Part shown: piece by piece, positions 3,201 through 52,822 of the stretch | How the letters are laid out: each line of letters begins with the position of its first letter | How positions within the stretch are numbered: the first letter of the stretch is position 1 | DNA from: an uncultured virus (IMG/VR IMGVR_UViG_3300020469_000015) | Taxonomy: Duplodnaviria > Heunggongvirae > Uroviricota > Caudoviricetes | IMG/VR virus record: IMGVR_UViG_3300020469_000015 | Reading direction: 5' to 3' (one strand) | Length of the DNA: 64,000 nt | Translations under genes and position numbers: made by a program | The notes under the pieces: model-generated | Database searches by the model: none | What the model saw: the letters and a program-made list of their open reading frames with translations, nothing else | Told to the model about the DNA's origin: nothing

Positions 3201-3513
3201 CCAACTCCCTTTTAGTTAGAGGGTCGCCATGTCCTTCTGCATGACCAACAGAGTCCATTGAAACTCTATCAGAAAGGATATCTTCGTCACCTTCATCTTC
3301 ATCAACTTTCTTAATGACAGGAAAAGGTTTCGTGCCGTCATATCCTTGAGCAAGTCGCTCCCAATTCACATCATAGGGTAAATTTAACCCACCCATTTCT
3401 CTAAGAAATTTTGCTTTGTCTAAAGGATTATCGTAAGAGTTAAACTCTTTCAAAATACCTTGCATAGATAAATCATTCTCTTTAATCTTTTGTTGTATAG
3501 TTTTTGTAGTCAT
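3187..3513 (-). CDS. hypothetical early protein
   Basis: ORF with strong SD ACGAGGAG, downstream of an early promoter. Confidence 0.75.
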   Translation of the reverse strand: MTTKTIQQKIKENDLSMQGILKEFNSYDNPLDKAKFLREMGGLNLPYDVNWERLAQGYDGTKPFPVIKKVDEDEGDEDILSDRVSMDSVGHAEGHGDPLTKRELDALL

Positions 3514-38813: not shown

Positions 38814-39323
38814 TTAATTATAATTAATATTAATGTTTATTCTGGCATTAGCATTCGTACATGTGGTGCTTCTATGCCTTTCTTTTCCGTTGAAAAGCAA
38901 CATTCTATTTCTGATAGATGATATAAAACCATCATCTTCAAAACTTGTATATCCGTCATTATTATTAACATAAAATAATGCCGCTTTAACTGGAAAGTTA
39001 TCTCTATCTGTATGAAAGTTATGTTTTACTATTTCATGTGTTCTAGGATAAAAGTTAACTTTAGCACGGATAATTTGTTCATGTGGAATCTTTTCCATTA
39101 ATTTAGATACAATAGGTTCTGCCCAATCACTATTGCTATAGGATCCTGTAATAAGACTATGTGATAACATAAACTCACTATCATTCTTTGTAATACTACT
39201 TTGATAGTAATAAGGAAAGTTTGCTGATAGTAAAAGGTCTTCTAACCATTTTATATCTTTCTCAGGTAAATAATTATCGTATAATTTGTATTTCTGCTTT
39301 ATCATGCCAGATTTCAAGTTCAT
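38814..39323 (-). CDS. 2OG-Fe(II) oxygenase
   Basis: FHTD, LFYVN..DGYT, NRMLLF...RHRS, RININ. Confidence 0.85.
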   Translation of the reverse strand: MNLKSGMIKQKYKLYDNYLPEKDIKWLEDLLLSANFPYYYQSSITKNDSEFMLSHSLITGSYSNSDWAEPIVSKLMEKIPHEQIIRAKVNFYPRTHEIVKHNFHTDRDNFPVKAALFYVNNNDGYTSFEDDGFISSIRNRMLLFNGKERHRSTTCTNANARINININYN

Positions 39324-40398
39324 TTCTTATGTTATTGTTTTGTTTAAGTTTATTAAATCTTTTAGTAGCAAGTTTTTGCCACCATTTGATTGTATTCTCT
39401 AATGTAAACTTATCGTAATGTATACCTTTTTTAAGTTCGTCTGTTTCTCTTTTAAGATATTGTGGTACATTTTCATATCCGTAATCAGACATGTAAAATC
39501 TTTTCTGTTCAGTTAAGTCTCTAGTTTTATTTACAAACTTACTAAACTTATCATATAGATTGGCGTCATATTGTTTTAAGGATTCCTTAATTATAGATAC
39601 CATCTTTGTTTGTATTTTTAGTTTTCTACTACTTGCGTCAGCGTCAACTAAAGGTTCTCCGTTTCTTTCTGTAAACCAGGCATTCATTTTCTTAAATGCT
39701 TCACCATGTAATAATGGTAAGAAGTGACTATCTGTCAAACCTTTAAATCTTAAATAAGGTTTCATACCATCATACTGACTTGATGATTTACTACTACCAT
39801 ATAAACTTGTTGTTTCAAATAAACATATGTTAGTGTTATATTTCATATTTAGTATATCTCTCACATGATGACTACAGCATATCGCCGCTAATAGTTTACC
39901 ACCAAGATAATTATAACCAAATGGTTGTGTAGGTACAATTACAAATCCCATAATGGCACTATTGTTAAATCTACCCATTTCTTCCATGTCTGTAGTTTGT
40001 AAAGGTCTACCAAGATAAACGTTTCGTGGTTTACTATTAATCACAGGACTACCAAGTCTAATAAAACCTACAATAGTATTTGTAGTTGTTTCTGTAACTA
40101 ATAATCTAATTGACTTACCAGGTATACTTGACATGTTAGTATGACTAGATGTTTTGTTTAACATTCTATCAAATATTTGACCATTAGGTATCGTCACGCT
40201 AAATTTCATATCTTCAGGAGATATTTCAAAGTTAGCAAAAAACTCATCTTCATCTGCCATACCAGGTAATTGAAATGGAAAATTTTTAACTTGTTCTAAT
40301 TTTTGTTCTTTAAGATATTGGTCTATTCTTTCATATTGACCAAAGTATTCTATAAAGTAATTCATTGCCCATGTAGCGTCTTGGTTATTTAATATCAA
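39274..40398 (-). CDS. DUF4338/DruA-like (Mom/GNAT-related) protein, paralog A
   Basis: PTQPFGYNYLGGKLLA, ETTSLYG..SSQY; paralogous to 51566..52822. Confidence 0.65.
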   Translation of the reverse strand: MILNNQDATWAMNYFIEYFGQYERIDQYLKEQKLEQVKNFPFQLPGMADEDEFFANFEISPEDMKFSVTIPNGQIFDRMLNKTSSHTNMSSIPGKSIRLLVTETTTNTIVGFIRLGSPVINSKPRNVYLGRPLQTTDMEEMGRFNNSAIMGFVIVPTQPFGYNYLGGKLLAAICCSHHVRDILNMKYNTNICLFETTSLYGSSKSSSQYDGMKPYLRFKGLTDSHFLPLLHGEAFKKMNAWFTERNGEPLVDADASSRKLKIQTKMVSIIKESLKQYDANLYDKFSKFVNKTRDLTEQKRFYMSDYGYENVPQYLKRETDELKKGIHYDKFTLENTIKWWQKLATKRFNKLKQNNNIRNELEIWHDKAEIQIIR

Positions 40399-46347: not shown

Positions 46348-46376
46348 ATTCTATCATAAAATCATACTTTTGTCAA
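46348..46376 (-). promoter_or_regulatory. sigma70-type promoter TTGACA-17-TAGAAT (leaderless start)
   Basis: ATG 7 nt after the -10. Confidence 0.8.
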
Positions 46377-46390
46377 GCCTGAAATTAATT

Positions 46391-46414
46391 AAAGGGCGGC
46401 GATTAAGCCGCCCC
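46391..46414 (-). terminator. intrinsic terminator after hsp20
   Basis: GGGCGGC/GCCGCCC stem then TTTAATT. Confidence 0.8.
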
Positions 46415-46420
46415 ATCTAT

Positions 46421-46867
46421 TTACTTAATCTCAAAAGTTTTTGCTTTCTTGTGGTCTGGAACAATTCGTTCTAAACCTACTTTAAGCAAACCATCTTTTA
46501 GTTCTGCACCTTTGACTTCAACGTCATCAGCAATCGTAAAGACTTTAGAGAAATATCTTTTAGCAATACCTTTGTGTATTGTTTCTGTATCTTCCTTTTC
46601 TTCGTCTTTAGGATATGGTTTTGATTTAATTGTTAATTGATTGTTTTCGTATTCAACTATAACATCATCTTTACTATATCCTGCTAATGCCATTTCAACA
46701 TCATACTTGTTACTGTCATGTTTAACAATATTGTATGGTGGGAAATTATTTGCTGTCAAGTGAGGAAGATGAGTTGTCATTTCGTCAAAATGCGAAAATA
46801 AATCATCATACCCTACAGTAAATGGTTTAAGTGAATTAAAAATAGATAGTGCTTTGTAATTGGTCAT
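46421..46867 (-). CDS. hsp20: small heat shock protein (Hsp20/IbpA-like)
   Basis: FPPYNI, EMALAGY, HKGIAKRYF, AELKDGLL. Confidence 0.95.
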   Translation of the reverse strand: MTNYKALSIFNSLKPFTVGYDDLFSHFDEMTTHLPHLTANNFPPYNIVKHDSNKYDVEMALAGYSKDDVIVEYENNQLTIKSKPYPKDEEKEDTETIHKGIAKRYFSKVFTIADDVEVKGAELKDGLLKVGLERIVPDHKKAKTFEIK

Positions 46868-46940
46868 TTGAACCTCCTTTTGTTAAAGCAAAGTTATTTT
46901 TTTATATAAATTGAAACACCCTTATGGCATGCTTCGTAAG
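46868..46940 (-). ncRNA. ROSE-like RNA thermometer in the hsp20 5' UTR
   Basis: AACUUUGCUUU pairs with AAAGGAGGUU (UUGCU opposite the SD); a further hairpin lies upstream. Confidence 0.6.
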
Positions 46941-46973
46941 TATTTATATAATCATTAAATTTCATATTTCAAG
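46941..46973 (-). promoter_or_regulatory. overlapping late promoter TATAAATA and RpoH-like CTTGAA...TTATAT promoter for hsp20
   Basis: TATAAATA at 46941-46948; CTTGAA at 46968-46973. Confidence 0.55.
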
Positions 46974-47060
46974 TGGCAGTTTTTAAAGAGATACTGCCAA
47001 ACTCAATGTCTTGCATTTACGAGAGGCAAGACTTACCTAGGATTTACGAGCTACCTAGAT
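46974..47060 (-). ncRNA. putative small RNA of three tandem hairpins with CUC(G/U)U-AAA loops
   Basis: Stems CUAGG/CCUAG, GUCUUGC/GCAAGAC, UGGCAGU/ACUGCCA; loop CUCGUAAAU twice; TAAATA at 47065-47070. Confidence 0.6.
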
Positions 47061-47067
47061 AAACTAT

Positions 47068-47403
47068 TTATGCGTATGCTTGTCCCTCAAGCGCCATTAA
47101 GCCAGCGGCTACAATCGCTTTTGAAGGTGTACCAATTCTGTAACTAGTACCATTAGAAGATTTATTGATATATACACAATATCCTTCTTCTCTTAACTTA
47201 TCAACAACCGCTCTTGGTCTCTTTAAGTTAAATTTATTTTGTGCGTCAGTCCATGACACACTTGCACCTCTTAACATTGAGTTAAGAAATTTAGTGCTAT
47301 TCGCTATTTTAGCTCTTCCCATAACAACTTTTCCTTTCGTTTTCTTGTTTGTCTTGGTCGTCTTTTCACTATCGCTAATGAAATCTTTTATAAAGTTTAA
47401 CAT
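47068..47403 (-). CDS. small basic winged-HTH-like protein (likely start MGRAK at 47322)
   Basis: PRAVVDKLREEGYCVYIN...YRIGTPS. Confidence 0.7.
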   Translation of the reverse strand: MLNFIKDFISDSEKTTKTNKKTKGKVVMGRAKIANSTKFLNSMLRGASVSWTDAQNKFNLKRPRAVVDKLREEGYCVYINKSSNGTSYRIGTPSKAIVAAGLMALEGQAYA

Positions 47404-47404
47404 C

Positions 47405-47608
47405 TTATTGTTCCCTTTCCCTTATTTTTTTGTTTTTCAGGACACGCTTAATGTTTTCCTTTTTTAATCTGAGTTTTTTTTCTGATGGTTTTTCATAGTA
47501 TTGTCTTGTCTTCAACTCTCTCACTACACCTTCTCTCATAAGTTTTTTCTTAAGCTGTCTGATTGCTTTTTCAACATTATTGTTTTTTACTACAACAGTT
47601 ATTGACAT
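47405..47608 (-). CDS. rpsU: ribosomal protein bS21
   Basis: VVVKNNNVEKAIRQLKKK...GVVRELK.RQYYEKPSEKK. Confidence 0.93.
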   Translation of the reverse strand: MSITVVVKNNNVEKAIRQLKKKLMREGVVRELKTRQYYEKPSEKKLRLKKENIKRVLKNKKIREREQ

Positions 47609-47622
47609 AATATACCCTTTAT

Positions 47623-47696
47623 TGGAGCGGATGGCAGGTAACGCTCCTGCATTTCCAGTTTGGTAAACTGGCGTAATACTTCTATACCACACCCGC
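47623..47696 (-). tRNA. tRNA-Gly with anticodon ACC (atypical D and T loops)
   Basis: Acceptor GCGGGTG/CATCCGC, U73, encoded CCA; anticodon arm CCAGT-TTACCAA-ACTGG; T arm GCAGG-AGCGTTA-CCTGC. Confidence 0.85.
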
Positions 47697-47706
47697 TTGT
47701 TTTAAA

Positions 47707-51565: not shown

Positions 51566-52822
51566 TTATCTTCCTACCTGTTTTAGATACTTTTCCTTGG
51601 TTTCTTCCCATGTTAAATGTATCAAGTCATCATAGTAAAGCGTCTCCATGTTTGTCCTTGTTTGGTCAATCAATGATTTAATACGCTTTCTAGCATAACG
51701 TTCTCGCCATAATTCTGATAATGCGTCAACGCTACTCTCAAAACTTTTGACTAGTTTATCTTCAGGTATTTCTTCTCGTAAAAATTCTCTTGTATTATCA
51801 TATAGTGTGGAAAAATAGATACCTCTACTGTGGTCTGACTTTGTTAACTCTTTTGGTATACCTAGTTTACTATATGCAAATGTATGACTTCTATTTCTGT
51901 GGTCTCTCTTATATGGTTGACCTGTAGGTTTTGTAGCACTATACCATTCAAAGTATTTTCTGGTGTGATTTTCCATAATCCACTTTCTTAACATTTGAAT
52001 AGTAGGTTTTGTTGCTTCGTATGATACACTACCTGCACTATGACCTCTTTTCTTCCAATGTCTTAAATTTTGATATTGACTAAAACTACCATATAAACTT
52101 GTAGTTGTAACACCAACCATTGTATCGCCATATTCTTTTTTCCATGTCTCTTGTACTTTATCTGATAAACACATCAACGCAAGTAACTTACCACCTGTGT
52201 AATTATAACCTAGTGGTTGTAGTGGCACAATCGTACTACCTATCGCCGTGTGATTAATCATCTTTTTAGTTTTACGTTCTCTATCCCAACCTATGTAACT
52301 ATCTCTAGGTGTTAAATCTAAAAAGTCACTTGATATACAAATGACACCTAGATATTTCTTTGTTGGTTTATCTCTTACTATAAAGTTTAGATTACGACCT
52401 ATATTGTTATTGTTTTTCATTGTAGAGGCAAATGTTCTTATTGCGTTCCACAATTGTGGTAATTCTGGACTATCTTTTGTATAGATTAGTTCTGGTTGTA
52501 ACTTCTCAAAATCCATAGGATCCTGAGGTGACCATATATTGTTCTTTACATGAGTTAATAGTTTGTCTTTTGATAAATCTACTAATTGACTTTCTTCGCC
52601 AAATAAAGTGTTTACTGTCTGAGCAGGATACTTGTTTTTAACTTCACACCATTTTTGATATAACGTATATTCTTCTACCGTCATACCAGACACATAACCT
52701 AGTTCAGTAATTAAACGTTCTTTAAGTTCGTTTGTATCTATATGTTCGTAAGGTGTAGGGTTTTCTTGTTGAAAGGTCTCCCATTGCTTTTCTAATAAAG
52801 GGTCTATAATTTTTTCTGCCAT
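51566..52822 (-). CDS. DUF4338/DruA-like (Mom/GNAT-related) protein, paralog B
   Basis: PLQPLGYNYTGGKLLA, TTTSLYG..SQY. Confidence 0.65.
   Translation of the reverse strand: MAEKIIDPLLEKQWETFQQENPTPYEHIDTNELKERLITELGYVSGMTVEEYTLYQKWCEVKNKYPAQTVNTLFGEESQLVDLSKDKLLTHVKNNIWSPQDPMDFEKLQPELIYTKDSPELPQLWNAIRTFASTMKNNNNIGRNLNFIVRDKPTKKYLGVICISSDFLDLTPRDSYIGWDRERKTKKMINHTAIGSTIVPLQPLGYNYTGGKLLALMCLSDKVQETWKKEYGDTMVGVTTTSLYGSFSQYQNLRHWKKRGHSAGSVSYEATKPTIQMLRKWIMENHTRKYFEWYSATKPTGQPYKRDHRNRSHTFAYSKLGIPKELTKSDHSRGIYFSTLYDNTREFLREEIPEDKLVKSFESSVDALSELWRERYARKRIKSLIDQTRTNMETLYYDDLIHLTWEETKEKYLKQVGR

Follow-up and report, generated by a model that had tools for sequence, protein, structure and literature searches.

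A candidate small structured RNA with a family-defining hairpin and a 3' pseudoknot in T4-like phages of SAR11-type bacteria

In the ocean, T4-like phages that infect SAR11-type bacteria occur in abundance, and they are known carriers of bS21 and tmRNA. CsrB/RsmZ sponges repeat GGA in their hairpin loops, type III antitoxin RNAs (ToxI/CptI) consist of tandem repeats of a pseudoknot unit, and TYMV-type tRNA-like structures have a 3' H-type pseudoknot with a short U loop, a free 3' NCCA and a constant acceptor/T stack. The cuckoo sRNAs of Alphaproteobacteria carry CCUCCUCCC in each of two to four hairpin loops (PMC4615179), triple-helix pseudoknots are common in riboswitches (PMC13541005), the non-coding OLE RNA binds bS21 via an SD/anti-SD mimic (PMC12054373), lake phages express their bS21 late (PMC9723584), and the T4 late promoter box lies at −13 to −6 and is tolerant at its first base (PMC1524935).

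The window analysed here is a stretch of 64,000 nucleotides from an uncultured virus (IMG/VR IMGVR_UViG_3300020469_000015) and is a piece of a T4-like phage genome. Pelagibacter phage HTVC008M is 98% identical to it over 46400-47700 and 100% identical over the RNA element described below. The minus-strand gene order is cobT-like, cobS-like AAA, tRNA-Gly, bS21, HTH-like protein, a 200-nt gap, hsp20, DUF3310 and gp45, and the folded RNA element of this virus of SAR11-type bacteria sits in the gap between the HTH-like gene and hsp20. The neighbouring features are as follows.

47405..47608, minus strand: phage ribosomal protein bS21 (PF01165)
47068..47403, minus strand: upstream gene, HTH-like protein, a 111-aa ORF (phrog_4973)
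46941..46972, minus strand: separate hsp20 promoter region, with TTGAAA at 46972-46967 and a perfect TATAAATA at 46948-46941
46868..46935, minus strand: hsp20 5' leader, a separate element predicted to fold in a ROSE-like two-hairpin layout that ends over the GGAGG ribosome site
46421..46867, minus strand: hsp20, small heat-shock protein (PF00011, phrog_432), the usual downstream gene

Among 53 distinct viral loci, the order cobS-bS21-HTH-element-hsp20 was found as far as each contig extends; across the wider family the genes upstream of the element are the HTH-like gene, bS21, cobS or an LGT-type gene. The HTH-like protein has 133 homologs and belongs to Atlas clusters in which HTH_39 is assigned to 11-75% of members. 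Its conserved core is 84 aa and begins at the ATG at 47322, most homologs being 84 aa with the same start. Paralogs of this gene elsewhere in related phages have no RNA element and end in a plain terminator-like hairpin at the equivalent place, and one HTH gene (L267) matches residues 1-58 only, with no element behind it, possibly through rearrangement or misassembly. An obligate link of the element to the HTH-like gene was rejected, the gene being absent beside the element in subfamilies C and E and its paralogs lacking the RNA; one to bS21 was rejected because it fails in D and E. Several other features of the region were noted. Ahead of bS21 lies an odd tRNA-Gly (47623-47696, minus strand; anticodon ACC by ARAGORN, non-standard T loop), present in two loci (L001 and L161) and not found in 11 other scanned loci. 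HTVC008M has a 2OG-Fe(II) oxygenase gene between hsp20 and DUF3310 (L001:4319-4873) that the window lacks (46350-46420). A DruA-family gene lies at 51566 (PF14236; regions 51566-52822 and 39274-40365, minus strand). Many members of subfamilies B and C carry short tRNA-like or hairpin-rich clusters behind the element (L002:2650-2990; just past the pseudoknot in L412, L450, L460 and L425); the L002 cluster was missed by ARAGORN and Rfam, and the small ORFs annotated there in Mosig are probably not genes.

The minus strand of 47062-46974 folds into three adjacent hairpins (−28.4 kcal/mol, z −3.68, none of 200 shuffles as stable), compared with z −1.85 for the plus strand. The three-hairpin region begins directly after CATAAATAGT; the element is about 90 nt long in the window and 63-133 nt across the family. 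Its parts in the window are listed from 5' to 3'.

47065..47072, minus strand: T4 late-promoter-like box CATAAATA, with a TAA that doubles as stop codon for the upstream HTH gene
47033..47062, minus strand: H1, the family-defining hairpin, with a stem, GG/CC, bulged U47042, closing pair U47053-A47043 and the 9-nt loop AGCUCGUAA
47008..47032, minus strand: H2, the subfamily-A middle domain, loop CUCUCGUAAAU, with double changes in three of six pairs
46974..47004, minus strand: H-type pseudoknot, S1 pairing GAG 47004-47002 with CUC 46990-46988 and S2 pairing GGCAGU 46998-46993 with ACUGCC 46980-46975
47001-46999 and 46987-46981, minus strand: U-rich loop L1 and A-rich loop L3 of the same pseudoknot

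The original prediction was of three tandem hairpins behind a late promoter, with conserved loops repeated on divergent stems. Its fold, position and quoted loops are all present in the window and the H1 loop is conserved, but the third hairpin is stem S2 of a pseudoknot, and its loop is no copy of the first two, as the CUC in it pairs with the upstream GAG.

Subfamily-A loci were collected via homologs of the HTH-like protein and with a promoter-free DNA pattern, which gave 76 viral matches; the initial set held 44 distinct variants, all with NATAAATA, H1 and H2. With model R1, H1 was detected behind bS21 in Mosig (E 9e-4) and, weakly, ahead of hsp20 in Melnitz; the H1 model R2 confirmed both (E 8e-7 and 7e-4, respectively). 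For the wider set, one pattern combined the late box with H1 (at least 120 matches) and another TATAAT with H1 (99 matches). The full set comprises at least 138 distinct variants among at least 382 locus matches, many of which are the same contig fetched twice; the 138 divide into subfamilies A (45), B (17), C (33), D (26) and E (17). Because the B-E patterns required promoter and loop, conservation of these two parts in B-E is partly built in, while stems, pseudoknot and gene context were not fixed by the search. Thirteen loci were left out (two cellular chance matches, eight chance matches, one adapter chimera and two unrelated). Matches to a TAAATA pattern in L444, L478, L497, L499, L505, L516 and L521 were judged to be chance, four lying inside opposite-strand ORFs and three being near-copies of those, and L598, with no stem and no neighbours, was dropped likewise. 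An exact-repeat scan for CTCGTAAAT..CTCGTAAAT returned mostly unrelated repeats among the matches listed. Two unrelated viral contigs (L090:348-421 and L099:1547-1620) carry 31-nt tandem repeats with CCCUCUCGUAAAUC that match R1 weakly (E 0.095), possibly a CRISPR-like or other array.

A single strong copy of the element was found in each of five complete or near-complete genomes. In cyanophages, R1 gave one weak match inside uvsW over five genomes and R2 none over three. The subfamily-A pattern, run over genome_contigs for a cellular homolog, gave two matches without promoter or matching stems (best CM E 1.6). The element had been thought to belong to no named family, and this held: Rfam 15 gave no match at gathering score or credible E-value over the element in the window, Mosig, Melnitz or 10 B, C and E loci.

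That the stems are under selection as RNA was borne out in the relatives. On alignment A3, 94.2% of cells pair, compared with 31-51% for slid registers, and double changes are seen in 9 of 16 pairs and in 73 cells, a level reached by none of 500 shuffles, although tests of this kind are inflated by the relatedness of the variants. In the subfamily-A alignment, 6 of the 10 H1 pairs show double changes. The lower H1 stem contains 82 G-U pairs and no A-C, which fixes the strand as the coding (minus) strand and argues for RNA; a DNA cruciform was rejected on the same count. Comparison across variants shows a constant arrangement of box, H1, exchangeable middle domain and H-type pseudoknot, evidently selected as RNA on the coding strand.

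H1 has the family consensus GGC-NRYYCRUWA-G-W-CC, with the loop NRYYCRUWA and five columns invariant in 138 variants. In subfamily A it has two G-C pairs, a bulged U or A, and a closing pair that is C-G in 39 of 44 variants and U-A in 5. The 7-mer YUCRUAA, which fits the anticodon-loop pattern Y-U-N-N-N-R-A, was found in 133 of 138 H1 loops, a count to which the search patterns contribute in B-E, and in 38 of 44 in subfamily A. One form, UUCGUAA, is identical to the anticodon loop of E. coli thrW, and another, UUCAUAA, is one base from the fMet loop. The closing 31-39 pair of a 7-nt anticodon loop is possible in 0 of 138 loops; all 138 could instead form a UUCG-like tetraloop closed by an R-U pair. 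Decoys of Tyr and Lys anticodon loops had been suggested on the basis of GUAAA and UUUAA, but the former is not the family consensus and the latter occurs in 10 of 134 pseudoknot loops, so that the likeness that survives concerns a different 7-mer without anticodon-loop geometry. No covariation between H1 and the pseudoknot was detected, mutual information being low, and the H1 loop has no conserved partner inside the RNA. An invariant, unpaired loop of this kind suggests recognition in trans.

A finder that required a U-rich L1 located the pseudoknot just past the middle domain in 101 of 103 variants, whereas among shuffled sequences it did so in 64 of 309 and among reverse complements in 50 of 103; in the full set, with one mismatch allowed, 134 of 138 variants have it. 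The first count of S1 pairing (1.0) was circular, and a swap test with S2 located independently of S1 was used instead: the own partner paired in 103 of 120 variants, compared with 31% for swapped partners and 21% for those with a different triplet. S1 occurs as GAG/CUC, AAG/CUU, GGG/CCC, GGC/GCC, CGG/CCG and others. On a tool alignment of 22 short-loop variants, S2 is 100% paired, with double changes in two pairs, and S1 is 67% paired by fixed-column counting, as loop lengths shift its register. S2 retains a G-C, U-A step at its top in 123 of 134 variants, L1 is UU or UUU in 103, and S1 and S2 together span 8-17 bp. By analogy, the pseudoknot may contain a U·A-U-type triple helix. It resembles the triple-helix pseudoknots of telomerase (P2b-P3) and of SAM-II/SAM-V (PMC13541005 and PMC2704228) in its H-type topology, U-rich L1, U-A-rich S2 top and A-rich last loop, the triples themselves being putative; unlike SAM-II/SAM-V, the element lacks SAM-binding residues and an Rfam match and is preceded by a fixed hairpin.

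The middle domain differs between subfamilies. Subfamily A has an CCUCUCGUA loop (in H2 of 39 of 44 variants), B has AGAGGUAGAG and a hairpin, C has GCGUGGARGG and, by eye, an apparent second pseudoknot, D has a CCUACUC loop, and E has no such domain, giving a natural minimal form of ~65 nt. A second YCGUA-type loop, the other repeat of the original prediction, is essentially confined to subfamily A (43 of 45 variants, compared with 5 of 93 others), the middle hairpin being subfamily-specific or missing. In L014-L017, L161 and L170 an insert of ~30 nt lies between H2 and S2, across which GGUG/CACC pairing could keep the pseudoknot. A stretch of CGUGGAGG appeared by eye to be common to subfamily C and the rpsB/t44 leader; this candidate was rejected, as the topology differs and there is no Rfam match.

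The box at the front of the element probably acts as its promoter, judging from sequence conservation. In subfamily A, NATAAATA was found in 44 of 44 variants without being part of the search pattern. Among 45 subfamily-A variants, box and HTH stop codon are apart in 31, coincide in 11 and are undeterminable in 3; the 31 indicate that the box is kept for its own sake. The T4 rule places the predicted +1 near 47059, with the NATAAATA box at −13 to −6 as in gp55 late transcripts of T4. The assignment as a late promoter stands for all A and B and for 27 of 33 C variants, but not for the family as a whole, since D, E and 6 C variants have only a TATAAT-type promoter; promoter type thus appears to have switched between host type and late type within the family. 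A loose end is that the outer pairs of H1 covary although they precede the predicted late +1; the hairpin may therefore fold in read-through RNA as well. Behind the pseudoknot there is no strong U-tract (9 nt contain 3.5-5.7 U), and terminator prediction was negative.

Compared with the analogues that had been proposed, the element recalls cuckoo sRNAs in its variable stems and conserved pyrimidine-rich loops and, in part, in its adjacent hairpins, and its H2 loop CCUCUC is anti-SD-like. It differs in lacking the CCUCCUCCC motif (CCUCC occurs in 4 of 138 elements), in loops that are mutually different and in a 3' part that is a pseudoknot. Adjacent hairpins number two in subfamily A, the third being a pseudoknot stem, and one in E. 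Unlike CsrB/RsmZ, it has GGA in 0 of 138 H1 loops and no Rfam match. A multi-copy protein sponge is thereby disfavoured, the minimal form having a single such hairpin, whereas the general idea of a protein-binding RNA survives. TYMV-type tRNA-like structures also have a hairpin with an anticodon-like 7-mer, a 3' H-type pseudoknot and a UUU loop, but in the element a free CCA occurs in 2 of 134 variants, S1 and S2 vary in length and the 9-nt loop cannot close as a 7-nt one. ToxI/CptI differ in being tandem repeats, the element being single-copy. The setting recalls that of OLE RNA, with bS21 no more than 800 nt away in 85 of the 86 A-C variants that could be assessed, but there is no CCUCCU mimic duplex, and in D and E the element never adjoins bS21 (0 of 26 testable variants). 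The likeness to the ROSE_3 thermometers of ibpA (RF02523) belongs to the separate hsp20 leader; the element itself precedes the hsp20 promoter and bears no resemblance to ROSE.

Taken together, the element works most likely as a small binding or decoy RNA. We tentatively favour, at somewhat less than an even chance, a small non-coding RNA of ~65-110 nt that stands alone, occurs as a single copy in T4-like phages of SAR11/OM43-type bacteria and presents H1 to a conserved protein. The RNA would start at its own promoter, late in the lineage of the window. The pseudoknot would be a rigid, triple-helix-type module protecting the 3' end, its sequence drifting while the U-rich L1, the G-C/U-A top pairs and the A-rich L3 are kept. 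H1 would be the working face, its loop and bulge being almost unchanged among phages with different hosts; it would be bound by a conserved protein, most probably a host factor that acts in translation or RNA turnover. During infection the RNA would thereby serve as a decoy or ligand with one site. The tRNA-like 7-mer of the H1 loop makes tRNA-handling proteins the first partner candidates. Changing neighbours, a separate hsp20 promoter in most lineages, the fixed H1 face and a 3' knot conserved in structure only all fit a stand-alone RNA; the lack of a second promoter in E, the lack of a strong U-tract, the outer H1 pairs before +1 and the pattern bias in B-E count against it.

A less probable but serious alternative is that the element is a cis-acting upstream module of the hsp20 operon leader that tunes hsp20 translation together with the ROSE-like hairpin; H1 and the pseudoknot would then either lend stability to the 5' end or offer a binding site to a regulator, which may be the small heat-shock protein itself. 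Downstream of the element, hsp20 begins within 160 nt in 97 of 134 cases, which favours such a module, but the 28 cases in which DUF3310 comes next (7) or hsp20 lies farther away (21) do not, the contig being too short in the remaining 9; in Mosig, hsp20 is ~1.4 kb and one long gene away. Where hsp20 is adjacent, a separate promoter precedes it in 41 of 41 A, 6 of 7 B, 9 of 10 C, 16 of 23 D and 0 of 16 E variants. In the lineage of the window the hsp20 promoter thus lies behind the knot, against the module; in 7 of 23 D and in all 16 of these E variants there is no second promoter, so that in such E variants the hsp20 mRNA has the element at its front end. Promoters fitting TTG-N17-19-CYTATAT, which we take to be of the RpoH type, were found in 16 of 26 D and 6 of 17 E variants, and the Melnitz hsp20 leader (L316:936-998) matches ROSE_3 (E 5.7e-4, 34 bits, under the 43-bit cut-off), both in favour of a leader role; the Rfam search gave no ROSE_3 match in the window's own hsp20 leader. 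Twelve RNA runs contain part of the region, and four were compared, all as contigs from mixed metatranscriptomes. In three studies hsp20 RNA contigs stop at 46935, 46920 and 46916, at or inside the hsp20 leader, a weak sign that also speaks against the module. X2, X9 and X10 have no RNA contig cover over 46985-47070, which is uninformative either way as small RNAs are lost, and among the 32 of 79 pieces listed one contig (X5) spans the element and may be DNA or read-through. A role in the hsp20 leader may be the ancestral or E-type use.

It is unlikely that the element chiefly marks a boundary or processing site, at which H1 would signal to a nuclease or for termination, the pseudoknot would stop exonucleases and the long bS21-HTH-(tRNA-like RNAs)-hsp20 transcript would be cut up. 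Upstream RNA contigs stop at 47072 and 47074 in two studies, just 5' of H1, and with the hsp20 contig ends this weakly hints that the hsp20 mRNA starts behind the element and that H1 marks a boundary. The plain hairpin in the same place in HTH paralogs and the tRNA-like sequences behind the knot in several B and C members also agree with it, but a barrier needs neither a conserved promoter box of its own, apart from the stop codon in most subfamily-A variants, nor a subfamily-specific invariant middle loop. A new riboswitch or ribozyme, with H1 docked on the pseudoknot, is improbable: H1 and knot always occur together, the minimal form is small with about a dozen near-invariant positions, and triple-helix pseudoknots are frequent in riboswitches (PMC13541005), but no Rfam riboswitch or ribozyme matches, no metabolic gene lies downstream, and the H1-knot spacing varies by ~45 nt with no covariation between the two.

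Least probable is a base-pairing RNA whose middle loop pairs with a target. The best target for subfamily A is the sarcin-ricin loop: CCUCUCGUA is complementary to E. coli 23S rRNA 2656-2664, perfectly over 9 nt in four of four rRNA sets tested, none from SAR11, and 25 of 2520 permutations do as well; the best rRNA site for the subfamily-A element gives −15.5 kcal/mol. Little weight attaches to this match, since it was noticed post hoc and nothing similar occurs in other subfamilies: the B, C and D middle motifs have no conserved rRNA complement, E has no domain, 5 of 44 A variants lose the 9-mer, and 109 of 2520 permutations of it match E. coli rRNA somewhere. A complementarity of the subfamily-D loop to 5S loop E was rejected, as it fits E. 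coli only and not alpha- or betaproteobacterial operons. The shut-off of early genes through CUCGU-ACGAG pairing, put forward in the original prediction, fares no better: CUCGU is present in 4 of 138 H1 loops, of 80 gene starts, 2 have ACGAG nearby, and duplex energies resemble those of random windows, the H1 loop paired with the site at 3513 (−6.9 kcal/mol) standing at their 5% level.

The literature yielded no account of such an RNA, subscription journals and the supplements of PMC10690425 being outside reach, nor did the accessible text of the Melnitz paper (PMC9004378) and the SAR11 motif paper (PMC2704228). The text tables of Fremin et al. 2023 (PMC10690425), who reported 8,495 candidate structured RNAs of DNA viruses, hold no match to the motif strings or contig ids; the family may be among the unnamed candidates of that work.

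With three carriers cultured, a minimal natural form of ~65 nt and natural variants that mark mutable positions, the element is open to testing. It is a rather remote prospect that the family is a widespread phage RNA class engaging the host translation machinery, with H1 as a tRNA-loop-like ligand of a tRNA- or ribosome-handling protein, a telomerase-type triple-helix scaffold and a middle domain for targeting (in subfamily A, antisense to the sarcin-ricin loop, which is universally conserved); if so, the subfamily-A RNA, whose gene neighbours phage bS21, would be a natural modulator of the GTPase function of the ribosome. An RNA with a nearly fixed loop, an exchangeable middle domain and a change of promoter type, kept by Mosig, Melnitz and HTVC008M-like phages and not found in five cyanophages, points to an undescribed RNA-level tool of infection.
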